In this document: positions 27,189-37,637 of the stretch, piece after piece
Layout of the letters: each line of letters opens with the position of its first letter
Numbering within the stretch: the first letter of the stretch is position 1
Translations under genes and position numbers: made by a program
Source: Candidatus Curtissbacteria bacterium RIFCSPLOWO2_02_FULL_40_11
GTDB lineage: Bacteria; Patescibacteriota; Microgenomatia; Curtissbacterales; GWA2-41-24
Direction of reading: 5' to 3'
Assembly (NCBI GenBank): GCA_001776505.1
Contig: MFBV01000001.1
Span: 862 to 43,891, forward strand
DNA length: 43,030 nucleotides
Notes under the pieces: generated by a model
The model's database searches: none
What the model saw: the letters and a program-made list of their open reading frames with translations, nothing else
Told to the model about the DNA's origin: nothing

Positions 27189-28286
27189 ATGTTAATTAAA
27201 CCAGATGTAAACAGATTTGCCAAAATAAAAGTTCTCGGACTCGGTGGCGGTGGCACTAACGCTCTCAATTCAATGATTACTCAAGCCCAAATACAAGGTG
27301 TAGATTTTGTTGCTGTTAATACCGACCAACAACACCTACTTGCTTCTCAGGCCCAAACAAAAGTTCAAATTGGCGACGGTTTAACAAAAGGCTTAGGTGC
27401 CGGGGCAGACCCCGAGATTGGCCGAAAAGCAGCAGAAGAATCTCTGGAGCGAATTAAAGAAACAATTACTGGGGCCGACATGGTTTTTCTAACTTATGGT
27501 GCGGGCGGAGGCACAGGAACAGGTGCTGGACCAGTGATTGCGGAACTTGCCAAAAAACTCGGCATTTTAACAATTGGAGTTATTACAAAACCATTTGGAT
27601 TTGAAGGAACCAGAAGAATGGTTGTAGCCGACGAAGGGATAGAAATCCTGAAAGATAAAGTCGATACACTAATTGTTATCCCTAATCAAAAACTACTGGA
27701 TGTTGTCGATGAAAATGTTTCTCTTCTAGAAGCATTTAAATTAGCAGATTCAGTCCTCTCACAAGGTGTGCAGGGGATATCTGATATTATAGTTGTTCCA
27801 GGCTTAATCAATGTTGACTTTGCAGATGTTAAAGCAATAATGAAGAGCGCAGGATCAACACTTATGGGTGTCGGTAGCGCAACCGGCGAAAATCGGGCAG
27901 CAACTGCTGCCAGAAGCGCAGTAGCCTCACCTCTCTTAGATACTTCTATTGAAGGGGCCCGAGGAGTTCTCTTCAACATTACTGGTGGTTCTGACATGAC
28001 CATGAACGAAGTCGATGAGGCTGCAAAGGTCATTACCTCTCAGGCAGATCCAGATGCGCAAATAATATTCGGCGCAGCAATTGACGAAAAATTAATAGAT
28101 CAGATAAAGGTGACAGTAATTGCCACAGGATTTGATGAGACTCGACAACAATACGCAAGACCAACTGTTCAAGATGTACTAGATACAGAAGGCAAGGAGC
28201 TGGAAGAAGGCGAAAAACCAGCCGGTGATGGACAGATGGAAGACGATGAATTCGACGTTCCCACTTTTTTACGTCAAATACGTTAA
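27189..28286 (+). CDS. ftsZ: Cell division GTPase FtsZ
   Basis: 365 aa. GLGGGGTNA, tubulin signature [12 protein letters not shown]-terminal FtsA-binding peptide [12 protein letters not shown]. Confidence 0.98.
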
Positions 28287-28300
28287 ACTTTCCCAGCATA

Positions 28301-28329
28301 TTGACTATCTGTACATAATGTACTAATAT
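28301..28329 (+). promoter_or_regulatory. Promoter TTGACT-17-TAATAT with embedded 13-bp palindrome GTACATAATGTAC (candidate antitoxin operator)
   Basis: TTGACT at 28301-28306, palindrome at 28311-28323, TAATAT at 28324-28329, ATG at 28336 (6-nt gap). Confidence 0.55.
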
Positions 28330-28335
28330 CAAAAT

Positions 28336-28614
28336 ATGAACGTAGTTGTTTCCATAAGTCAATTTCGTCAAAATATCGCTTCATATATTGAAAGAGCCAA
28401 AAAAGGAGATACAGTTATCTTAAAAGACGAGAAAAAAGACCAGCAGATGGTCCAGCTTGTTGGAAAGAAAAAGTTCAATCCTGAAGCATTTGGAAGAGCA
28501 CTAAAGACAGCTGCTGGTGTGTTCTCCGCAAAGAATCACCCCGAGTGGAGGACAAAAAAAGATGTAATTAAATGGGTCGAGCAAACAAGAAAAGCATCTG
28601 ACCGTATCTTTTAG
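28336..28614 (+). CDS. Phd/YefM-type antitoxin
   Basis: 92 aa. N-terminus VVSISQFRQNIASYIERAKKGDTVILKD is the Phd/YefM pattern. Immediately upstream of the PIN toxin. Confidence 0.75.
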   Translation: MNVVVSISQFRQNIASYIERAKKGDTVILKDEKKDQQMVQLVGKKKFNPEAFGRALKTAAGVFSAKNHPEWRTKKDVIKWVEQTRKASDRIF

Positions 28615-28616
28615 AC

Positions 28617-29015
28617 GTGTATTTACTTGATACGGATATTATCATTTGGGTTTTACGCGGCAATAAAAAATACGAAGAGTTACTTCAAAATTTAAAAGAC
28701 AAAGATACACTTTCTATCTCAACAGTAACAATTGCCGAAATTTATAAAAATATTTTTCCTTCCGAAATTGTAAAGACCGAAAATGTGCTTGGCGAGCTTG
28801 AGACTTGGGACGTGACCTCGTCTATTGCAAAACAAGCTGGTCTTTATTGGCAAGAATATGTAAAACAGCTTAAAAATTTAAACCTAACGGATTGTTTAAT
28901 TGCTGCAACTGCAAATGTTAACAATCTGACACTAGTTTCGTTAAATACTAAGCATTTTCCCATGAAAGACATAAAAACCTTAAGCCCTCTTAGACAAAAC
29001 GAAACTACAGGATAG
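28617..29015 (+). CDS. vapC: PIN-domain toxin VapC
   Basis: 132 aa, GTG start 2 nt after the antitoxin stop. LLDTDIIIW (first acidic residue), TIAEIY, LTDCLIAATA. Confidence 0.85.
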   Translation: MYLLDTDIIIWVLRGNKKYEELLQNLKDKDTLSISTVTIAEIYKNIFPSEIVKTENVLGELETWDVTSSIAKQAGLYWQEYVKQLKNLNLTDCLIAATANVNNLTLVSLNTKHFPMKDIKTLSPLRQNETTG

Positions 29016-29098
29016 TTATAGTAGAGGAGTTAAGGTTAATCTCCTAAAGTGACAATTTTTACACACCTTTATTTTAGAAGCTAATTTGAAGCTAGAGT

Positions 29099-29132
29099 AG
29101 TAACGTCGTACTACGTTGATTGTGCGACGCAC
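29099..29132 (+). repeat. 34-nt intergenic repeat R1 (AGTAACGTCGTACTACGTTGATTGTGCGACGCAC)
   Basis: 25/34 identical to R2 at 31277-31310, with exact blocks AGTAACGTC, TAC and ATTGTGCGACGCA. Contains the palindrome GTGCGaCGCAC. Confidence 0.6.
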
Positions 29133-29160
29133 TTCTTAAAAATCATGACAGCTCAGCAAA

Positions 29161-29169
29161 TGATATAAT
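29161..29169 (+). promoter_or_regulatory. Extended -10 (TGaTATAAT) for mntA-hepT
   Basis: TATAAT at 29164-29169 and ATG at 29176 (6-nt gap), so predicted leaderless. Confidence 0.5.
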
Positions 29170-29175
29170 TACAAT

Positions 29176-29463
29176 ATGAAAGCAGATTTAGAAGACATTA
29201 AAAAGAAAGCAGTGCCAATTCTAAAAGAGGCTGGGGTGACCCGTTCTTCGATTTTCGGCTCTTATGTTCGTGGTGAAGCAAAAAAAAACAGCGATATTGA
29301 TATTTTGGTTGATTTCCCAAGAGGCAAGGGGTTATTTGCGTTTGTAGGCTTGCAGCAAAGGCTCGAAGAAGTTCTTGGGATAAAAGTTGATCTTGGGGAA
29401 TACAGTACGCTTAAACCACGTATAAAAGACCAAGTTCTTTCCCAGCAAGTTAGAATTATATAA
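29176..29463 (+). CDS. mntA: MNT-type nucleotidyltransferase antitoxin (MntA)
   Basis: 95 aa. FGSYVRGEAKKNSDIDILVDF is the GSxxRG...DxD minimal nucleotidyltransferase motif. Confidence 0.9.
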   Translation: MKADLEDIKKKAVPILKEAGVTRSSIFGSYVRGEAKKNSDIDILVDFPRGKGLFAFVGLQQRLEEVLGIKVDLGEYSTLKPRIKDQVLSQQVRII

Positions 29464-29474
29464 ACAATCAGCCC

Positions 29475-29804
29475 ATGCAAAGAGATATAGGTTTGTACCT
29501 TGATGATATTTTAGAAAGCATAGAAAAGATTGAGGAATATACCCACGATTTAAGCGAAGAAGAGTTTTCCAGAAATACCGAGACCCAAGACGCAGTTCTA
29601 AGAAGATTAGCAATTATCGGTGAAGCTGTTAAACACCTTCCAGAAGACTTAAAAGAAAAACACAAGCAAATTCCTTGGAAACAGATTGCAGGTGCAAGAG
29701 ACATATTTGTTCATGAGTATTTTGGTGTTGGTATTGAAAGAGTTTGGGAAACAATCCAAGAAGATTTACCAGAGCTAAAGAAAGTGGTTGAAGAAATAAT
29801 CTAG
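29475..29804 (+). CDS. hepT: HEPN (DUF86) RNase toxin HepT
   Basis: 109 aa. RDIFVHEY matches the Rx4HxY HEPN catalytic motif. Paired with MNT. Confidence 0.9.
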   Translation: MQRDIGLYLDDILESIEKIEEYTHDLSEEEFSRNTETQDAVLRRLAIIGEAVKHLPEDLKEKHKQIPWKQIAGARDIFVHEYFGVGIERVWETIQEDLPELKKVVEEII

Positions 29805-30529
29805 GGTGCAGAGTTTGGTACGGGCAACCCTTTTAAATCTTCCTGTTTAGCAAAAGTGAAATTGGCATTTAGAAGATTTTTGCCTCTGAGATAGCCATTA
29901 ACGAAGCTATATCCCTTAACTCTCAGTCGAACATTACTACCAACTATTCCCAAGTTAACCACATCTATAAATTCTGGTCTGTTAAAAACGAATGAAACTC
30001 TTGGAGTTTCAACTTCTGGGTCAGTTCTCAAAACCATCTTATCAACTGGAATCTCCGTAATTAGTATGTCCTGTCCGTTTGGTGACCATGCAAATTGGAT
30101 ACTAGATGCTGTTCTGGAATCAGACTCATACTTCCCTTCGCCACTCATGGTTGAGAATAATAAAAATCCGCTTCCATGCATTTCAAATGCTCCTTGAGCC
30201 TGTGCCCATACCCCTCTTTGGACATTTGCGGGGGCAAGAAGTTCATGGTCTCCGACCAACCCTTTTTCAGCTAAATCTCTTTCAAATTCTTCTATAGCTT
30301 GCTTCTCTGCCTGATTGAAAGAATTCCTCCATTCACGATATTTTCTCCCAGTAAACACATCCAAAGGACGTCTACTAATTCTGACTGAAATATCACGCCC
30401 TTGTTCAGGCCACGCAAGATGAGCAGACTCGGGTCTTGCTAGAGCTGTTTCATCGGCACCACTTGGGACAATAGCTCGTTCTTCGTTTGCCACAGCCAGA
30501 TTATAGAGGTGCAATACGTATAAAATCAA
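29801..30529 (-). CDS. Hypothetical protein (242 aa ORF, true start possibly GTG at 30493)
   Basis: Open from TTG 30529. An in-frame GTG at 30493 lies 6 nt after a minus-strand TATAAT. No recognised motif. GC-richer than the backbone. Shares a CTAG stop overlap with hepT. Confidence 0.7.
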   Translation of the reverse strand: MILYVLHLYNLAVANEERAIVPSGADETALARPESAHLAWPEQGRDISVRISRRPLDVFTGRKYREWRNSFNQAEKQAIEEFERDLAEKGLVGDHELLAPANVQRGVWAQAQGAFEMHGSGFLLFSTMSGEGKYESDSRTASSIQFAWSPNGQDILITEIPVDKMVLRTDPEVETPRVSFVFNRPEFIDVVNLGIVGSNVRLRVKGYSFVNGYLRGKNLLNANFTFAKQEDLKGLPVPNSAP

Positions 30530-30550
30530 TAGAGAATAAATCTAAGCCTG

Positions 30551-30652
30551 TTGCAATCTTTCCCATCATTAAGTATTCTTTACTTACCTTTTGAGGACTA
30601 AAGAATAGCTTGATCTATTATTGGGGTTGCTGATTGCTTTTGAACCTAAAAA
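30551..30652. repeat. Non-coding module L-A (~102 nt), paralogue of L-B
   Basis: Hand alignment with 32483-32583 gives 76 matches over ~102 columns with one 1-nt indel. Contains the hairpin AATAG-cttgat-CTATT (30604-30619). Confidence 0.7.
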
Positions 30653-30714
30653 TGGCACCTGACTTAGGAATCCCCACTTTTCTAATGCAAATTAGATAAA
30701 ACAGCCTTATCTTC

Positions 30715-30743
30715 TTGACATTTTGTACATAATATCGTAACAT
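30715..30743 (+). promoter_or_regulatory. Promoter TTGACA-17-TAACAT for the Phd/YefM-RelE operon, sharing TGTACATAAT with the 28301 promoter
   Basis: TTGACA at 30715-30720, TGTACATAAT at 30724-30733, TAACAT at 30738-30743, ATG at 30753. Confidence 0.45.
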
Positions 30744-30752
30744 CAAGATAAT

Positions 30753-31034
30753 ATGACACATACACTACCTATATCAAAAGCCAGAGAAGAGTTTGCAGAA
30801 TTAGTTGAAAACGCCAAAAAACGCCTGGACGAATATATTATTACTGTAAATGGCTCACCAGCCGCGGCCATTATATCTGCAGCAGAGTATGAATCATGGA
30901 AAGAGACAGAAGAAATTTTAGCTGACAAAGAACTAATGAAAGCTATAAAGCAAGGTGATAAAGACATAGAAGAAGGCAAGGTTCACGACTGGGAAGATGT
31001 TAAAAAAGAGCTGAAGCTTGATGTACAAAGTTAA
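30753..31034 (+). CDS. Phd/YefM-family antitoxin
   Basis: 93 aa. LPISKAREEFAELVENA...ITVNGSPAAAIISAAEYESWKETEEIL is the classical YefM/Phd pattern. Confidence 0.9.
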   Translation: MTHTLPISKAREEFAELVENAKKRLDEYIITVNGSPAAAIISAAEYESWKETEEILADKELMKAIKQGDKDIEEGKVHDWEDVKKELKLDVQS

Positions 31035-31281
31035 GCTCACGGCAAAAGCAAAAAAAGAACTAAAACAAATCTCCAGAAGGCATCAACTCGCACTAGGACA
31101 AATCTTCGACGAGCTAAAAGAAGCTCCAGATCTTGGGAAGCCACTAGGCAGAGAACTAACAGGCAAATTTTCCTACAGAATCAGTGTATACAGAATTGTT
31201 TATAAAGTGAACGAAAAAGACAAAATTGTCTACATAACAACCGCAGGTCACCGTTCAATAGCTTACGGAAAGCGAAAGTAA
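31018..31281 (+). CDS. relE: RelE/ParE-family toxin
   Basis: 87 aa. KVKLTAKAKKELKQI...YRISVYRIVYKV.EKDKIVYITTAGHR is the RelE/StbE-type pattern. 17-nt overlap with the antitoxin gene. Confidence 0.85.
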   Translation: MMYKVKLTAKAKKELKQISRRHQLALGQIFDELKEAPDLGKPLGRELTGKFSYRISVYRIVYKVNEKDKIVYITTAGHRSIAYGKRK

Positions 31282-31310
31282 CGTCCTACATTAGCCATTG
31301 TGCGACGCAT
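31277..31310 (+). repeat. 34-nt intergenic repeat R2 (AGTAACGTCCTACATTAGCCATTGTGCGACGCAT)
   Basis: Same orientation as R1. Overlaps the relE stop codon (31279-31281) and ends 7 nt from the stop of the convergent 376-aa gene. Confidence 0.6.
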
Positions 31311-31317
31311 AATTAAC

Positions 31318-32448
31318 TTATGAGATCCTTAGAATATCGGGATTTTTTGCAATTTGTTTTAGGAATGCTTTAGCATCTTTCTTTAAACCTTCATGGAGTC
31401 GGCCGAAGTACGCCCCTTCTTCTTTTGTGAGATATTCAGGGTACAAAACTGACGCCATATAAAATTCTGCAAAAGTTTCATGAATCATTGCTACAGATGC
31501 GTATTGGGTAAGTCTTATCTTTTTAGTTGCCAACCAAGGAATTTGTTCGTATGGTCCTTCACCCCAGACCTCTGTATCACGTATCCAAGCCCCTGGTGAC
31601 CCCCAAGGATATTCACCCCCCTTCTCAATAGCTTGTTTATAGTCGTCTGAGTCAGGCCCCAACCCCGTTTCGTCAATGGGAATGAGTTTCCAGCCATTAA
31701 CTTTGGCAAACGATTGGTAGATTGGATGATTAGCAAGCACATTAAAGTATGGGACGTACATAGAGTTGGAACTTTCATTTTTGTAAGCTTCTAAGGGCCT
31801 TGCGAGATAAAAAACAGCGTCGGCCAGGGCATGACCGTATTCATGAAGCACCGTTCTGTTAAAAGCATCTCGGTATGTTCCTAGCGGAATCTCGTCAAAG
31901 GCAGTGCTTCGGCCTCTGTCACCTGCAATTCCTGTAAATACTAGTGACGGTTCGACTTCTCTGTCTGGACTAAAGTTTTCAGGCAGGAAGAGTGCAGTTG
32001 CGGCATCTTCATCTAAATGATCAGAGTTGAATTTCTTTATACTTGATGACCATCTACGTCCCCAGTAGATGCCAGTAATGCCAGAATCGTCTGACTCCGA
32101 CTTGTATCTGTAAGGCAAAAGTAAGGGGGCAAGTTTGCCTGCGTAAGGGATGCGTGATAAGCTTTCTTCAATGATATTTGCTTCATCTGTTGTAAGATCT
32201 GCAGGGTTTCGTTCAGACAGATCATAAAGCTTGGGATACGTATCTTCTTTTATGAAAAAACGCTCATCTGTGTTTAATGGAACCAGAACTCCAAATCTAG
32301 CTGAAATTTGATTTTCCGAAGACTTAGTTAAAGTCTCAAAGAGTTTCCAGCCGCCTACAGCTGCCGCTCCTCCAACAACAAATGAACTTCCTGATACGAT
32401 CAAAAACTTTCTTCTGGAAATTCTCCTTGAATGTTCTATCTCTTGCAC
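31318..32448 (-). CDS. Predicted Tat-exported HExxH zinc-metallopeptidase-like protein
   Basis: 376 aa, GTG start. Twin-arginine N-terminus SRRISRRKFLIVSGSSFVVGGAAAVGG. TVLHEYGHALADA is an HExxH motif. GC-richer than the backbone. Confidence 0.6.
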   Translation of the reverse strand: MQEIEHSRRISRRKFLIVSGSSFVVGGAAAVGGWKLFETLTKSSENQISARFGVLVPLNTDERFFIKEDTYPKLYDLSERNPADLTTDEANIIEESLSRIPYAGKLAPLLLPYRYKSESDDSGITGIYWGRRWSSSIKKFNSDHLDEDAATALFLPENFSPDREVEPSLVFTGIAGDRGRSTAFDEIPLGTYRDAFNRTVLHEYGHALADAVFYLARPLEAYKNESSNSMYVPYFNVLANHPIYQSFAKVNGWKLIPIDETGLGPDSDDYKQAIEKGGEYPWGSPGAWIRDTEVWGEGPYEQIPWLATKKIRLTQYASVAMIHETFAEFYMASVLYPEYLTKEEGAYFGRLHEGLKKDAKAFLKQIAKNPDILRIS

Positions 32449-32482
32449 AATTGGCCAATTTTAACAGATTTTATACGGCTTA

Positions 32483-32583
32483 TTGCAATTTTTCCTGCAA
32501 TTATGTATTCTTGGCTTGCCTTCCGAGGACTAAGGAAAGACTTGATCTTTCTTGGAGTAATTGGTTGTTTTTGAACCTAAATA
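32483..32583. repeat. Non-coding module L-B (~101 nt), paralogue of L-A
   Basis: See L-A. Contains the hairpin GAAAGA-cttga-TCTTTC (32535-32551) at the aligned position. Starts 34 nt from the start codon of the 376-aa gene. Confidence 0.7.
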
Positions 32584-32619
32584 AAATACTCAATATGTGA
32601 AGCAAGAAGTATTTTGATT

Positions 32620-32651
32620 CTCGCTTCGCCGAGTCTGACTCGGCTTCGCTC
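32620..32651 (-). repeat. GA-rich hairpin element, copy 2 (minus strand: GAGCGAAG-CCGAG-TCAGA-CTCGG-CGAAGCGAG)
   Basis: 28/32 identical to copy 1 (1592-1623). The two stem differences are complementary (T:A to C:G). Confidence 0.6.
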
Positions 32652-32774
32652 AAAATAGGGTAGATGTTTCTAGAAATCTTGCGATTTCTGAGGTGCTTTT
32701 CGGCAAAGCTGGATGCGCGCCTAAGGAATTTCCAGATTCCTAAAGCAAATAAGATAAATCTAAATCTAGAATAA

Positions 32775-33224
32775 ATGTCAGCCATTTCAGAAATCCCACA
32801 TAACCAAGAAACTTCACAAAAACGTACGCACGATGTAGATGGAATTGTATTTATAGTGCAGGGAGATGGCAGTGTATCGGGAGTAGGTTGGCAGGGCAGG
32901 TATTTAATCTTTGGACGGAATCAGTTGAATTTGCTTCAGCGAGTCGTCAAAAAGGTGGGTTCTCTACCGTCTACTCAATTAGAAGTCGCAGGCATAATAA
33001 CAGTATCTAAAGAAAGCGGACATGAGCCAGTTGATGTGTTTGTAGAACAAAGTGGCAATTGGGTTAGAGGAAGTGATTTTGCCGGCAGCGTTTCTCTTTC
33101 AATGGCGACAAGCGACTCTGAAGCATTGGCGCATACCCTTAGTGAACTAGATGTTCTTTTAAAAGGAGAAGATTTGCACAAAAGTCATTTTTGTGAAGAG
33201 TACGGTATAGTTGATGATGATTAA
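32775..33224 (+). CDS. Hypothetical protein, 149 aa
   Basis: Uninterrupted ORF with ATG start, followed by a terminator-like hairpin. No recognised motif. Acidic C-terminus. Confidence 0.6.
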   Translation: MSAISEIPHNQETSQKRTHDVDGIVFIVQGDGSVSGVGWQGRYLIFGRNQLNLLQRVVKKVGSLPSTQLEVAGIITVSKESGHEPVDVFVEQSGNWVRGSDFAGSVSLSMATSDSEALAHTLSELDVLLKGEDLHKSHFCEEYGIVDDD

Positions 33225-33244
33225 TGTAAGTTAAATTATTCCTA

Positions 33245-33283
33245 AGAAGACTTGCTTTTTCCCTATTGTCTTCTCAATTTTTT
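33245..33283 (+). terminator. Putative intrinsic terminator
   Basis: AGAAGAC (33245-33251) pairs with GTCTTCT (33268-33274), followed by caaTTTTTT. The 16-nt loop weakens the call. Confidence 0.4.
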
Positions 33284-33360: not shown

Positions 33361-33756
33361 GTGAGAGAAAATTTGATTAAAAATTTAGAAAGTTTAACTC
33401 TTTTTACCCAAAATGCCAAAAAACTGGCAGGTTTTTACCGCGATAAAGTCGGTCTCAAAGTTAAGTTTGAAGCGGTTATGGGAGAAAATGATGAAGAAAT
33501 GTATGACATGTCTGTCGGCAAAAAAAGCAGTCTTTACGTAATTGACCATTCAAAAGTTAGAGGCAAAAACAAACAACCGGAGCGAATAATTTTTAATTTG
33601 GAAGTTGATGACATCAAAAAAGAAACAGCCAGATTAAAAAAAGCCAAAGTAAAAGTTGTGCAGGATACCTACCACGTAGAAGGCTACGGGTACATTACCA
33701 CTTTTGCCGATTTAGATGACAACTTTTTCCAGCTGGTTCAGGTAAAAGCAAATTAA
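33361..33756 (+). CDS. Glyoxalase/bleomycin-resistance (VOC) family protein
   Basis: 131 aa from GTG 33361. The strong SD AAGGAGGTGA (33355-33364) favours the in-frame TTG at 33373. FTQNAKKLAGFYRDKVGLKV and GYGYITTFADLDDNFFQLV fit the VOC fold. Confidence 0.65.
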   Translation: MRENLIKNLESLTLFTQNAKKLAGFYRDKVGLKVKFEAVMGENDEEMYDMSVGKKSSLYVIDHSKVRGKNKQPERIIFNLEVDDIKKETARLKKAKVKVVQDTYHVEGYGYITTFADLDDNFFQLVQVKAN

Positions 33757-34214
33757 GCCGGCCAAACAGCGATAATCGAGCTCATTATAATCAAAGATAC
33801 AAAGCTGTAACTTACGCCAATTAAAAATAATTGCTGGTTTCTCTTTTCCCAGACAACTGGTCCAAGAGAACTTGTTACCACAAAACCAAGCCAGACTAAA
33901 AACGACAAAATAACTGCGAGAGCTATTGTATTTGCACCAACCCAGCCAATAAACACTGCAAGCACATAAGCTGTTACTAATGTTCCAACAAATGTAATTG
34001 CATACATCATCGGCATTTCTTTCTTGTCTTTTTCGATATCAGCTTTGGTTACACCTGCTGCTTTCATCCATGTTTTGCCAAACAAAGGTCCATGCCAAAT
34101 TGCACCCAATATCATACTAACAACAGCAGCAACTAGAACTGCTACATTATTTACTACAACTTCAGGCAAATTGATCACCTCCTTTAGGCAAGAATTTTTA
34201 ACAATCGATATCAA
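33753..34214 (-). CDS. DUF1761-family membrane protein
   Basis: 153 aa, 4 TM. NNVAVLVAAVVSMILGAIWHGPLFGKTWMKAAG matches the DUF1761 N-terminal signature as I recall it. Confidence 0.7.
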   Translation of the reverse strand: MISIVKNSCLKEVINLPEVVVNNVAVLVAAVVSMILGAIWHGPLFGKTWMKAAGVTKADIEKDKKEMPMMYAITFVGTLVTAYVLAVFIGWVGANTIALAVILSFLVWLGFVVTSSLGPVVWEKRNQQLFLIGVSYSFVSLIIMSSIIAVWPA

Positions 34215-34318
34215 AAATATATACCTATTTTAAAAACCGGTCAATACACAGCACTTGATTTTCACGCGGGTATTGTTCTACAATTTTTTATTAGCTGCTC
34301 AATTGAAAGGTTAGAAAA

Positions 34319-34738
34319 ATGGGAAGCATAGAAGCCGAAACAAATCGAGAAATCGAAGGAGAAAGAACTTTTCATCTACCTCTAACACAAAGAGAAGTAG
34401 GAGTTACGATACAAAGTGTCAAAACCCATCCAGTGTTTCCATATCACGTTCGGTCGGGAGAGTCTCATAGAATTGGTAATTTACTGATTTCTGCGGGGGA
34501 TCCATGTCTTGAGACAAACAGCGTTGAATTGACAGTTCAAGATTCTCATTCTGGAGATCACCCAATTTGCCTAAATGAAGTTAGGTTAGTGGACGACATC
34601 TTACTCTTAGGCTCGAAAGGATCTGCTGCACTCAGAGAGATTAAACGTGATGGAATTGTTATGTTACAAATGTCACTCTCTAGAGAAATTGAGTTGAATA
34701 TGACAATTCCTGGAAATAAAGATGCAATTCCAGAATAG
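34319..34738 (+). CDS. Hypothetical protein, 139 aa
   Basis: Uninterrupted ORF preceded by TTGATT-18-TACAAT. No recognised motif. Confidence 0.55.
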   Translation: MGSIEAETNREIEGERTFHLPLTQREVGVTIQSVKTHPVFPYHVRSGESHRIGNLLISAGDPCLETNSVELTVQDSHSGDHPICLNEVRLVDDILLLGSKGSAALREIKRDGIVMLQMSLSREIELNMTIPGNKDAIPE

Positions 34739-34753
34739 ATACCCTGATTCTCC

Positions 34754-34782
34754 TTGAACACCTAATTATCTTCTGACATAAT
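34754..34782 (+). promoter_or_regulatory. Promoter TTGAAC-17-CATAAT for ileS
   Basis: TTGAAC at 34754-34759, CATAAT at 34777-34782, ATG at 34794. The intergenic space is too short for a T-box leader. Confidence 0.45.
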
Positions 34783-34793
34783 TAAGCCTAACT

Positions 34794-37637
34794 ATGGCTT
34801 TAAAAACTCAATTTAAACGTGTTGACCCTAAGCAAAATTTTGTGGAAATGGAGAAAGAGCTTCTTAAATTCTGGTTTGATTCAGGGATTATCAAAAAATA
34901 TCTAAACCGCAACAAAAATTCTAAGAAGAAATTTTCATTTCTCGACGGGCCGATTACCGCCAACAATCCCATGGGTGTTCACCATGCGTGGGGAAGGACT
35001 TACAAAGATTTATGGCAGAGATATTTTAATATGAAAGGATACCAGCAGAGGTTTCAAAACGGTTTTGACGAGCAAGGTCTTTGGATAGAAGTTGAAGTCG
35101 AAAAAGAACTTGGTTTTAAAAATAAAAAAGACATCGAAAAATACGGTATAGATAAATTTATCGAAAAATGCAGACAAAGAGTAGAAAAATTTTCCCAAAT
35201 TCAAACTGAACAGAGTAAGCGCCTTGGTTACTTTATGGATTGGGAGAATTCATACCACACATCTTCCAGTGAAAATAATTACGCGATTTGGAATTTTCTA
35301 AAAACTTGCCACAAAAAGGGGTATCTATATAAAGGGAGAGATTCTGTGCCCTGGTGCCCACGCTGTGGTACAGCAATTTCTCAACATGAAATTCTTACAG
35401 AGGAATATCAGGAAATGACCCACAAAGCAGTTTATGTTAAGTATAAAGTCACTGGTCACTGGTCACTGGTCACTGGTCACGTTTATCTTCTTGTCTGGAC
35501 GACAACTCCATGGACTTTACCCTCAAACGTGGCCATAGCTGTTAATCCAGATTTAAAGTACGGAATCTGGATTATCGATGGGGATAAATTAATAATCGAG
35601 CAAACACGAGCTAAAGCAATTGGTGTCAAAGAAAAACCGCAAAAGATTTTCAAGGGTAAAGAACTTGTGGGCACAACTTATCAGGGTGTTTTTGATGATT
35701 TGCCTGCTTTAAAAGGAGTTAAGCATAGCGTAGTTTCCGCCAAAGATTTAGTGACAGCCGAAGAAGGTACAGGTTTGGTTCACATTGCTCCCGGTGCCGG
35801 AGAAGAAGACTTTAAACTTGCTCAAGAAAATAAATTAGGTGTGGTTGAGTCGATCGATGAATCGGCAAATTACATTGAGGGTTTCAGCGATCTAACTGGT
35901 AAAAACGCCAAAGACAATCCCGATTTGGTAATCGAAAAGCTGCGTCAAAAAGGAACACTTTTTAAAGTCGAAAATTACAAACACCGTTATCCAACTTGCT
36001 GGCGCTGCAAAACAGAGTTAGTTTGGCGAGTAGTAAATGAATGGTATATCGCTATGGATTTAAAGGATTCGGATGACGAAGAAGGCAGGAGTTTGCGAGA
36101 AGAAATGATCGATGTAGCGAAAAACATAACCTGGATACCGAAGTTTGGCTTAGATCGTGAACTTGATTGGCTTAATAATATGCACGATTGGCTTATTTCT
36201 AAAAAACGTTACTGGGGACTTGCACTGCCAATTTGGGAATGTTCAAAATGTAGTCACTTTGAAGTAATAGGTTCAAAAGAAGAGTTAAAAAAGAAAGCCG
36301 TTGAAGGCTGGGCAAAATTTGACGGGAAAAGCCCTCATAGGCCACAAATAGATGGAGTTAAAATAAAGTGTTCAAATTGCGGCCTAAAATTAACAAGAAT
36401 TCCAGACGTTGGTAATGTTTGGCTAGACGCCGGCATTGTGCCAATATCCACAATGCCGGAAAACTGGTACCCTGCAGATTTCATCACCGAGTCTTTTCCG
36501 GGCCAATTTAAAAACTGGTTTTACTCGCTAATCGCCATGTCAACTGTACTAAAAAAATCCAACCCGTACAAAACAGTCCTGGGATTTGCCACGCTTCAGG
36601 ATGAAAAAGGAAAAGAAATGCACAAAAGTCGTGGAAACGCTATCGAATTCAATGAAGCTGCCGACAAAATTGGCGTTGATGTTATGCGCTGGCTATATAC
36701 TTCTCAGAATCCATCCAGTAATTTATTATTTGGCTATCACAAAGCAGACGAAGTAAGGAGAAGATTTTATTTAATACTTTGGAATTCGTATAAATTTTTT
36801 ATAGATTACGCGAGTCTTACGAATTGGAATTGCCATAAAACACCCAGAGATATAAATAAAAAATTGACAACTCTCGATAAATGGATTTTGGCAAGTCTTA
36901 CCAAAACTACACTTACCGTTAATGAGTTTTTGAATAGGTACGATTCGATGATAGCTTCAAGAACAATTGAAGATTTTGTAGTGAACGATCTTTCTGCCTG
37001 GTATATTCGCAGATCCAGAAATAGAGTAGGGCCCACTGCAAATAAACAAGACGAAAATATTTTTCTTTCCACAATGTATGGCGTTTTGGTGACACTATCA
37101 AAACTACTTGCACCGTTCACGCCATTTATCGCAGAAGAAATTTACCGGAATTTAACAGGTGATATTTCCGTAAATCTAAAAGATTACCCTCTGGGTGATA
37201 CAAGATTAAAAAACTCTAAATTATTAAGTGAAATGAAAACTGGCCGCCAAATTGTAGAAAAAGCTCACTCTATAAGAAAAAAAGAAGGCATAAAAGTTCG
37301 GCAACCATTAGCGAGTGCAACTTATGGAGGTTTTAAACTACCAAATGATATTGAGAACATGCTGGCGGCAGAATTAAACGTAGAAAAATTAATTTTCAAT
37401 AAAAATTCTAAGATAAAACTGGATACTAAATTAACAGAACAACTTAAGAAGAAGGGTGAAACTAGAGAAATAATTAGACAAATCCAGCAAGCCAGAAAAG
37501 AAGCAGGGTGCAATTTATCAGAAATAGTTTCGGTCAAACTTCCAACCTGGCCAAAGGGATTCGAGGAAGAAATTAAAAGAGAAACCTTAGCAAAATCAAT
37601 AGAAAAAGATATAAAGCTCGAAATAGTTAGAACTTAA
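34794..37637 (+). CDS. ileS: Isoleucine--tRNA ligase (type-2-like)
   Basis: 947 aa. GPITANNPMGVHHAWGRTYKD (HIGH region), WTTTPWTLPSN, editing-domain blocks, CWRC and CSKC/CSNC zinc knuckles, GKEMHKSRGN (KMSKS region). Confidence 0.95.
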   Translation: MALKTQFKRVDPKQNFVEMEKELLKFWFDSGIIKKYLNRNKNSKKKFSFLDGPITANNPMGVHHAWGRTYKDLWQRYFNMKGYQQRFQNGFDEQGLWIEVEVEKELGFKNKKDIEKYGIDKFIEKCRQRVEKFSQIQTEQSKRLGYFMDWENSYHTSSSENNYAIWNFLKTCHKKGYLYKGRDSVPWCPRCGTAISQHEILTEEYQEMTHKAVYVKYKVTGHWSLVTGHVYLLVWTTTPWTLPSNVAIAVNPDLKYGIWIIDGDKLIIEQTRAKAIGVKEKPQKIFKGKELVGTTYQGVFDDLPALKGVKHSVVSAKDLVTAEEGTGLVHIAPGAGEEDFKLAQENKLGVVESIDESANYIEGFSDLTGKNAKDNPDLVIEKLRQKGTLFKVENYKHRYPTCWRCKTELVWRVVNEWYIAMDLKDSDDEEGRSLREEMIDVAKNITWIPKFGLDRELDWLNNMHDWLISKKRYWGLALPIWECSKCSHFEVIGSKEELKKKAVEGWAKFDGKSPHRPQIDGVKIKCSNCGLKLTRIPDVGNVWLDAGIVPISTMPENWYPADFITESFPGQFKNWFYSLIAMSTVLKKSNPYKTVLGFATLQDEKGKEMHKSRGNAIEFNEAADKIGVDVMRWLYTSQNPSSNLLFGYHKADEVRRRFYLILWNSYKFFIDYASLTNWNCHKTPRDINKKLTTLDKWILASLTKTTLTVNEFLNRYDSMIASRTIEDFVVNDLSAWYIRRSRNRVGPTANKQDENIFLSTMYGVLVTLSKLLAPFTPFIAEEIYRNLTGDISVNLKDYPLGDTRLKNSKLLSEMKTGRQIVEKAHSIRKKEGIKVRQPLASATYGGFKLPNDIENMLAAELNVEKLIFNKNSKIKLDTKLTEQLKKKGETREIIRQIQQARKEAGCNLSEIVSVKLPTWPKGFEEEIKRETLAKSIEKDIKLEIVRT
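35448..35480 (+). repeat. Heptanucleotide tandem repeat (GTCACTG)x4.7 inside ileS
   Basis: gtcactg gtcactg gtcactg gtcactg gtcac, read directly. Translated in frame as VTGHWSLVTGH just upstream of the TTTPWT block. Confidence 0.9.

Follow-up and report, generated by a model that had tools for sequence, protein, structure and literature searches.

Two repeated modules downstream of ftsZ in Candidatus Curtissbacteria as probable attR-type junctions of islands integrated at the ftsZ 3′ end

The stretch of DNA considered here (the window) comprises 43,030 nucleotides of Candidatus Curtissbacteria bacterium RIFCSPLOWO2_02_FULL_40_11 (assembly GCA_001776505.1, contig MFBV01000001.1, positions 862 to 43,891), which is the part of the source genome that was covered. 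Two similar modules, LA (30551-30650) and LB (32483-32581), lie in it in the same orientation, within a variable stretch between the dcw cluster, whose last gene is ftsZ (27189-28286, + strand; Pfam Tubulin/FtsZ_C in public gene calls), and a backbone of glyoxalase, DUF1761 and ileS genes (33361-37637). From the comparison of their sequences with those of related contigs, it is very probable that islands integrated at the ftsZ 3′ end have left LA and LB behind as attR-type junction scars. The same gene order as in the window is present in contig MFBD01000041.1 of a groundwater bacterium of the candidate phyla radiation (CPR; assembly GCA_001776375.1), and the named FtsZ relatives at 81–87% identity are all Candidatus Curtissbacteria. 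L-numbers designate the contigs of relatives compared with the window, the flanks of which were read up to 10 kb.

The alignment of LA and LB, 102 columns long and with a single 1-nt indel, shows 78.4% identity, and the two constitute the top direct-repeat family of the window (blastn E = 3.5e-12 within the window). This bears out an earlier note, made from the letters of this DNA, which had counted 76 matches over about 102 columns with one 1-nt indel. The weaker similarity which that note had perceived further to the right is also real: a second colinear block (30663-30700 versus 32721-32758) is 79% identical over 38 nt; it has an E-value of 0.13 by itself, and a hidden Markov model (HMM) of the whole family makes the LB copy significant (2.6e-07). 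On the other hand, the unit size of about 100 nt proposed in the note was wrong. The full module measures about 160 nt and is made of block 1 (about 120 nt, non-coding, with a conserved hairpin) and block 2 (a copy of the last codons of ftsZ), the two halves of LB being split by about 135 nt of inserted DNA. No copies of block 1 other than those of LA and LB were found in the window. The mismatches between both copies show a transition to transversion ratio of 20:8, and codon periodicity is absent. A small open reading frame (ORF) shared by both copies was sought by six-frame translation and discarded, as the 47-aa ORF of LB (32431-32574) meets a stop and a frameshift in LA. It is worth noting that the identical blocks common to the two copies, which the note listed as conserved, cannot be taken as a sign of constraint: by our own calculation, a longest identical run of about 12–13 nt is expected by chance at 77% identity. 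Constraint on the module is visible only in the alignment of 38 copies described below.

Concerning block 2, the last ~36 nt of the module encode, in a single frame, the conserved C-terminal peptide of the neighbouring FtsZ followed by a stop, and the family HMM also matches ftsZ itself at its true 3′ end, both in the window (28245-28291) and in ten other contigs. The ftsZ tail of the window (28260-28286, the last 27 nt of the gene, CCCACTTTTTTACGTCAAATACGTTAA, encoding PTFLRQIR*), which represents the attL-type core of the array, at its proximal end, occurs again in the same frame and orientation in LA (30673-30699) and in LB (32731-32757), thus forming a direct repeat of the target-gene end. 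Read in frame from 30664, LA gives TTA GGA ATC CCC ACT TTT CTA ATG CAA ATT AGA TAA (LGIPTFLMQIR*). The tail of LB, more decayed than that of LA, reads GGA ATT TCC AGA TTC CTA AAG CAA ATA AGA TAA (GISRFLKQIR*). So, the earlier statement that no ORF is conserved across the copies holds for block 1, which contains one to seven in-frame stops in every copy, and fails for block 2, where the frame of the FtsZ C-terminal peptide is kept in both.

Among the 38 distinct modules, 27 yield one identical 11-residue peptide, spelled by 24 nucleotide sequences that differ from one another. In codons 5–12 (beginning with Thr) each of the six Leu codons, each of the six Arg codons and each of the three stops occurs, while codons 1–4 (TTA GGA ATY CCC) are near-invariant in nucleotides, the true ftsZ encoding EFD[V/I]P there. 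This contrast in codon use on either side of CCCAC indicates that the mode of conservation switches at that point. On this sequence pattern, the right part of the module can be considered to have evolved as ftsZ coding sequence, and the left part as a DNA (or RNA) site.

About 50 contigs, from Candidatus Curtissbacteria and relatives, contain the module, and 38 distinct full-length copies were collected from them, so the further copies envisaged in the earlier note do exist. Two homologues of the 376-aa protein encoded next to LB lie on short contigs (L040, L041), which contain several copies each, in one orientation per contig and with unrelated genes between them. Patterns of conserved positions led to 6 real loci in GTDB species representatives (Patescibacteria/Curtissbacteria metagenome-assembled genomes, MAGs) and 42 loci in groundwater metagenomes, and three more loci bear a Gammaproteobacteria label. 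Since the collections were scanned with exact patterns, this census is a lower bound, biased to conserved cores. A first, loose pattern with 16 specified bases was too unspecific, and a Sporomusa match (L046) was discarded as a chance match. The search of IMG/VR viral contigs with three patterns returned chance matches or none, with no sign of a recognised virus. The three loci with the Gammaproteobacteria label (L043, L045 and L047, from CAYHKI01, CAZLVB01 and CAYMGH01) were deposited as MAGs of ‘uncultured Gammaproteobacteria’; as L047 contains a Curtissbacteria-type dcw cluster and an FtsZ 90–91% identical to that of the window, this record, at least, looks misbinned or mislabelled.

In every contig where ftsZ is visible (the window, L047, L048, L053, L065, L067, L069, L070, L076, L080, L081, L091/92 and L094), the module lies downstream of this gene and on the same strand. 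The modules are 2–8 kb apart, and the last one is followed by the glyoxalase/DUF1761/ileS backbone, the genes of which come after the last module in L044, L047, L053, L065, L073, L076, L077 and L089. In the close relative L047 there is a single island with a single module, 86% identical to LB and placed directly before the glyoxalase gene. The ftsZ-ileS intervals of L093, L095 and L096 contain no module, and therefore the module is not part of the backbone. The module-closed islands are 2–8 kb in size and their cargo is varied, with toxin-antitoxin (TA) pairs, orphans, candidate defence genes and a mercuric-reductase-like operon. In these CPR bacteria, the ftsZ site thus forms a hotspot of candidate genes for defence and resistance. 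Among the cargo of related islands there are a protein with a GmrSD_N domain (best PADLOC match NsnA), an OLD/AriA/GajA-like AAA_15 ATPase, and an operon of ArsR, MerC-like and pyridine-nucleotide-disulphide-oxidoreductase (MerA-like) genes (loci L091/L092 11094-14473; L094 15034-16959; L044/L076, e.g. L076 2526-4839).

An integrase gene, coding for 337–338 aa, is found on the strand of ftsZ with its start some 220–230 nt past the ftsZ stop in L065, L067, L070, L090 and L094, and the same gene comes after a module core in L081. The Phage_integrase domain (PF00589) was recognized with E-values of 5e-30 to 1.6e-28 in the three copies scanned. The best NCBIfam matches are Xer-like, yet under every curated cut-off; against the integron-integrase model TIGR02249 the score is 66–85 bits, for a cut-off of 265, with a match confined to the C-terminal ~60–70 residues. 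The region from the core to the start of the integrase gene is conserved among the integrase elements, all of which bear the same version of the ftsZ tail, CCCACATTCCTnnGnCAGATnAGATAA.

The most informative comparison is that of L093 and L094, which share an identical FtsZ protein and flanks 99.96% identical, L094 having an additional 7.46 kb between ftsZ and VapBC, with the integrase gene, the OLD/AriA/GajA-like ATPase gene and small ORFs. L094 contains two copies of the final 30 nt of ftsZ, which flank the island. The unoccupied site of L093 (attB) reads GATATT CCCACATTCCT C AGGCAGAT T AGATAA TTTCCC. In L094, the ftsZ-proximal junction (attL) reads GATATT CCCACATTCCT A AGGCAGAT C AGATAA CCCCCT, i.e. 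it has two synonymous changes and then element DNA, and the distal junction (attR) consists of block 1, ending in ...GGAATC, and then CCCACATTCCT C AGGCAGAT T AGATAA TTTCCC, i.e. the native tail and the native downstream DNA. The three sites, when compared, place the exchange within CCCACATTCCT. As far as can be read from these sequences, this is the textbook signature of a site-specific integration that replaces the target gene's end, with the module in the role of attR. The attR of the L094 type is devoid of the 5′ part of block 1 that contains TTGCAAT (it covers HMM positions 38–166 only) and belongs to an integrase-bearing element, so that this part is probably dispensable.

These data can be accommodated in a scheme which is displayed by the relatives and which, for the window, is a proposed history. 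In the relatives, the attP of the element has three parts: an arm of about 100–120 nt (block 1); a core, TTAGGAAT-yCCCAC-ATTCCTnA; and its own synonymous copy of the last eight codons of ftsZ, beyond which an arm of about 230 nt and the integrase gene follow. Recombination in the CCCAC(ATTCCT) of the ftsZ tail joins the tail of the element to ftsZ (attL), and the native ftsZ tail ends up behind block 1, on the distal side of the island, as attR, which is the module. The displaced tails would keep their coding capacity because each of them would serve again as the end of ftsZ once the island upstream of it excises.

In the window, two modules, each closing its own island, imply that two accreted islands are present. 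The first to enter would have been that of Phd/ParE and the 376-aa orphan, closed by LB; the second, with VapBC, MNT/HepT and the 230-aa orphan, and closed by LA, would have entered at the core of ftsZ. If the LA-closed island entered later, block 2 of LA would be the former end of ftsZ, and Phd/ParE would once have been next to this gene. In L080, a homologue of window positions 30670-31307 (tail plus Phd/ParE) is placed directly at the ftsZ end, and the homology begins inside the core. Likewise, the VapBC segment, which comes after ftsZ in the window, comes after a module in L048, L064, L067, L071 and L075, and its homology with the window begins in those contigs exactly at the core, at 28258-28260 (CCCAC). 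Judging from these junctions, the contexts of the cassettes appear to be swapped between contigs as the scheme predicts. The window islands, where both modules are kept and no integrase gene is found in the window or in the annotated genes within ±10 kb, would be decayed elements or would depend on an integrase supplied in trans; in this they fit the published definition of cis-mobilizable elements (CIMEs) derived by decay and tandem accretion. The earlier note had noticed neither the connection with ftsZ, nor that the second block is of coding origin, nor the integrase; nevertheless, one of its suggestions, that of a cassette boundary with exchangeable cargo, was essentially right, the module being interpreted here as the distal attR-type junction of such islands.

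The hairpin claimed in the earlier note is present in block 1 at the position it gave, and is kept across the family, with the consensus (C)CyAAGAATGg - loop - cCATTCTTrG(G). In the 38-copy alignment, 88% of the cells pair, versus 57% when the partners are slid one column, and changes on both sides are seen at 5 of the 11 pairs (e.g. the innermost one, G-C 20 and A-U 12). Many pairs are U.G or G.U on the + strand, and would be mismatches if the other strand were considered. This, together with the conservation of ~100 nt of block 1 in 38 distinct copies, agrees with a different explanation, according to which block 1 is, or also gives rise to, a structured RNA (either a small RNA or a 3′-untranslated region or insulator at the island end) and the ftsZ-tail copy is merely its neighbour. 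However, the five outer pairs hardly vary, so most of the pairing support comes from invariance, and the kinship of the copies inflates the shuffle statistics; therefore, the covariation is suggestive but is no proof of RNA or of single-strand structure. In an Rfam scan of the whole window the tRNA alone reached the gathering score, and a permissive scan of 30400-32900 gave zero matches in either module, even at E ≤ 10. The single-sequence folds of LA and LB, run on both strands, were inconsistent with each other and had weak z-scores (−0.7 to −1.95), and there was no + strand promoter or terminator match framing the module. Moreover, the hairpin arms AAGAAT/ATTCTT, another ATTCTT upstream of them, and the core arms AGGAAT ... 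ATTCCT around yCCCAC are alike, and half-sites for protein binding explain them equally well. They could be repeated half-sites for the Xer-like integrase, which would suit an enzyme of the Xer type without a recognisable arm-binding domain. Arm-type repeats common to block 1 and to the integrase-side arm were also looked for, and the unconvincing CAAGAA was all that appeared. Taken as a whole, the structured RNA is an unlikely explanation, and the small RNA considered in the earlier note received no positive support; block 1 may all the same be transcribed.

The resemblance of the same-orientation repeats, about 2 kb apart, to an integron array also deserves consideration. In an integron-like platform, integrase-less cassettes with an attC-like block 1 would be inserted at an attI-like ftsZ tail by an integrase acting in trans. 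The TA and orphan cargo, the absence of a cis integrase (in the window, L041, L042, L048 and L091), the different ranks held by the same TA cassettes in different arrays, and L081, with an integrase-less island between ftsZ and the integrase-bearing one, go in this direction. Yet the module does not form an imperfect palindrome over its full length, and the R″/R′ (RYYYAAC...GTTRRRY) boxes are missing from it; in the 38-copy consensus fold, the central 11-bp hairpin and the core inverted repeat are all that pairs, the ends being unpaired. Besides the low and partial TIGR02249 score given above, the integrase rides the mobile island instead of standing beside a fixed attI, the ‘cassettes’ are multi-gene with promoters of their own, and tandem accretion plus decay accounts for arrays without a new mechanism (PMC5704250). 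As attC sites, the modules were ruled out by their architecture and by the type of integrase, and the platform as such is very unlikely. Unlikely, too, is a broader version in which the Curtissbacteria ftsZ tail would be an integron-like capture site, with short integrase-less cassettes (TA pairs, orphans, defence genes) inserted, excised and reshuffled in trans by the Xer-like integrase, the structured block 1 of ~110 nt at the cassette end as a folded, attC-like partner, and the stored, still-coding tails as interchangeable ends of an essential gene. That the divergent orphan genes on the minus strand share a 5′ leader or a cis-regulatory element was the first idea of the earlier note, and both window copies stand 5′ of such genes, but this is extremely unlikely: in L047, L044/L076, L048 and L094 the module abuts genes of the other orientation or gene 3′ ends (in L047 it starts 9 nt past the stop of a plus-strand gene of 301 aa), the 230-aa gene has a good sigma-70-like promoter match of its own, TTGATT-18-TATAAT (30529-30500), between LA and its start, the L041 homologue of the 376-aa gene has just a degenerate module fragment upstream, and the strand of the module tracks that of ftsZ in every case. 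Finally, the transition to transversion ratio, the lack of codon periodicity and a longest identical run not above chance would be compatible with a local segmental duplication decaying neutrally or with a transposable repeat similar to a miniature inverted-repeat transposable element (MITE). This is scarcely credible for a block conserved in about 50 contigs from different samples and species, with unrelated flanking genes, without terminal inverted repeats or target-site duplications, and located, in the contigs read, always distal to ftsZ and in its orientation.

Some observations nevertheless weigh against interpreting LA and LB as attR-type junctions, for which the supporting evidence is comparative throughout. 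No integrase was found in the window by tblastn, nor in the annotated genes within ±10 kb by Pfam. The arrangement of the window is identical in all 23 contigs read with identical FtsZ, among which no presence/absence polymorphism of its own islands was found. The identical stretch common to ftsZ and LA is limited to CCCACTTTT. The proposal of half-sites in block 1 derives from motif resemblance only. The good conservation of block 1 in integrase-less islands and the covariation rich in G.U pairs hint at an additional or different role, for instance as RNA.

The anatomy of the array, from ftsZ onwards, is as follows. Island 1 (28287-30545; no integrase by Pfam annotation) contains, on the + strand, a VapB-like gene (28336-28614) with its PIN partner (28617-29015) and the MNT (29176-29463) and HepT (29475-29804) genes, all by Pfam, and on the − strand an orphan gene (29801-30493). 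Regarding the starts of the minus-strand genes, the ORF taken as 242 aa in the earlier note begins at 30493 in public gene calls (230 aa), and the second orphan is kept as a 376-aa protein (31318-32448); the dissimilarity of both proteins affirmed there was corroborated, as they are unrelated on comparison. The 230-aa orphan has its called GTG start ~7 nt past the TATAAT box and no Shine-Dalgarno sequence, and its mRNA may be leaderless. Between the PIN stop and the MNT start there is a second conserved non-coding element, unrelated to the module and of about 150 nt (28996-29143, + strand), with copies of 76–80% identity in L053 (6452-6547), L054 (10827-10961), L067 (4784-4929) and L075 (3827-3960). 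It has stops in every frame, a terminal hairpin AACGTCGCA-N-ATTGTGCGACGC and no Rfam match, and is found within ftsZ-linked islands without being bound to one cargo gene.

The whole LA module was matched by nhmmer at 30541-30705 (E 8.9e-40). Its block 1 (30546-30671, + strand), the putative P arm derived from the element, displays in order GTTGCAAT ... GTATTCTT ... CCTTTTGAGGACT, the hairpin (30598-30626) and TTTTGAACCTAAA, and ends in TTAGGAAT (30664-30671); the core CCCCAC and the displaced ftsZ 3′ end, recognized by translation, occupy 30672-30699 (+ strand). Island 2 (30700-32477), also devoid of an integrase by Pfam, contains a Phd/YefM antitoxin gene (30753-31034) and a ParE toxin gene (31018-31281), both on the + strand, with their own promoter TTGACA-17-TAACAT (30715-30743) detected by promoter scan, and the 376-aa orphan gene on the − strand. 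The latter protein has only 3 homologues among 5.8 billion proteins, and its N-terminus (SRRISRRKFL) looks, in our own reading, twin-arginine-like. The VapBC and Phd/ParE pairs that stand behind a core have nearly alike promoter/operator sequences, TTGAC(T/A)ATyTGTACATAAT(G)TAC, with a TGTACA palindrome (window 28287-28335 and 30700-30752; L042, L047, L048 and L093). In many islands a TA pair is the first cargo past the core, as if it stabilised them.

Block 1 of LB (32478-32583, + strand; hairpin 32530-32557) was matched by nhmmer at 32475-32591 (E 9.2e-23), and block 2 (32719-32757, + strand), i.e. TAAGGAAT-TTCCAG-ATTCCTAA followed by the decayed ftsZ tail, at 32711-32761 (with the E-value already given). 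The intervening insertion (32584-32718, ~135 nt) is located between CCTAAATA and CTAAGGAAT and holds a palindrome that is GC-rich in an AT-rich genome, CTCGCTTCGCCGAGTCTGACTCGGCTTCGCTC (32620-32651), a reverse-complement copy of which is found at 1592-1623, in the intergenic DNA before a 581-aa ORF that starts at 1642. In L040 the module is interrupted at that same point, after CCTAAATA, by the same insertion, and split modules are found also in L053 and L054/L083. This suggests either a small element similar to a MITE or to a repetitive extragenic palindrome, or an old shared insertion. A 94-aa gene (window 32501-32785, − strand) has been called across LB and its insertion in GCA_001776375.1 (L005 1354-1638, L098 13313-13597); given the identity of the module, the call is probably spurious. 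A gene for a 149-aa orphan (32775-33224) follows LB, and just after it there is a possible third, truncated remnant of the module (ATTCCTAAGAAGACTTGCT, 33238-33256, + strand). The evidence for this remnant is weak; the sequence from it onward is homologous to what directly trails the module in L047 and L077, the L047 homology resuming at 33258. The 242-aa, 376-aa and 149-aa proteins gave zero Pfam or PADLOC matches. The backbone distal to the array (33361-37637, by Pfam) consists of the glyoxalase gene (33361-33756, +), DUF1761 (33753-34214, −), a gene for 139 aa (34319-34738, +) and ileS (34794-37637, +).

The islands related to ICESt1 and ICESt3 at the fda 3′ end of Streptococcus thermophilus undergo tandem accretion and give rise to CIMEs (PMC5704250). 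As in that case, a tyrosine integrase aims here at a housekeeping protein gene, at its 3′ end, and decayed elements without integration genes keep attL and attR; in contrast, the target is here ftsZ, the host belongs to the CPR, the islands are tiny (about 2 kb) and devoid of genes for conjugation or mobilisation, the integrase resembles Xer and is without a recognisable arm-binding domain, and a transfer mechanism is not evident. Other islands located at protein-gene ends, those of the dusA 5′-end integrases (PMC4482086) and those of the SGI1 family at the trmE 3′ end (PMC8409611), have in common with the ftsZ islands a dedicated integrase clade, one conserved coding target, variable cargo and toxin-antitoxin systems, and differ from them in the target and in the host phylum, no helper plasmid or phage being known for the ftsZ islands. 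With integron arrays and clusters of attC sites lacking integron integrases (CALINs) the coincidences are same-orientation repeats of ~100–150 nt, small TA or orphan cargo and a frequent absence of the integrase nearby; the differences are that the repeat lacks attC architecture and holds a copy of the target-gene end, and that the integrase is not IntI. When phage 21 or e14 integrates into icd of E. coli, the element brings a synonymously diverged 3′ end and the native fragment is left at the far junction. The swapped gene end and the displaced native fragment at the far junction are thus alike in both cases, whereas ~8 codons are swapped here versus ~50 codons of icd, and several displaced ends pile up here. 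Nothing relevant was found in the literature searched on ftsZ as an integration target or on Curtissbacteria integrases. So, the mechanism is known, while for a target such as this one, the 3′ end of ftsZ in a little-studied lineage of the CPR, no description came to light in that literature.

The interpretation of LA and LB as attR-type junctions replaces a vague module by defined parts in Candidatus Curtissbacteria: the ftsZ tail as attB, the arm and the core of an attP, and a family of Xer-like integrases as the cognate enzymes. In the CPR/Patescibacteria genomes are very small, mobile elements have seldom been recognised and genetic tools are nearly absent; a site-specific integrase whose target has been mapped could be tried there for the integration of DNA. 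For annotation purposes, the modules should be marked as att sites or as ftsZ 3′ pseudo-fragments, and any ORF call that runs over one of them is probably spurious. The C-terminal peptide of FtsZ tethers this protein to its membrane partners. The element rewrites the codons of this peptide and leaves spare coding copies of it, a constraint that is unusual for a mobile element. Between ftsZ and ileS there is a hotspot of flexible genes (TA pairs, OLD/GajA-like and GmrSD-like candidates for defence, the mercuric-reductase-like operon and orphans), and this helps to explain strain-level variation in these organisms.

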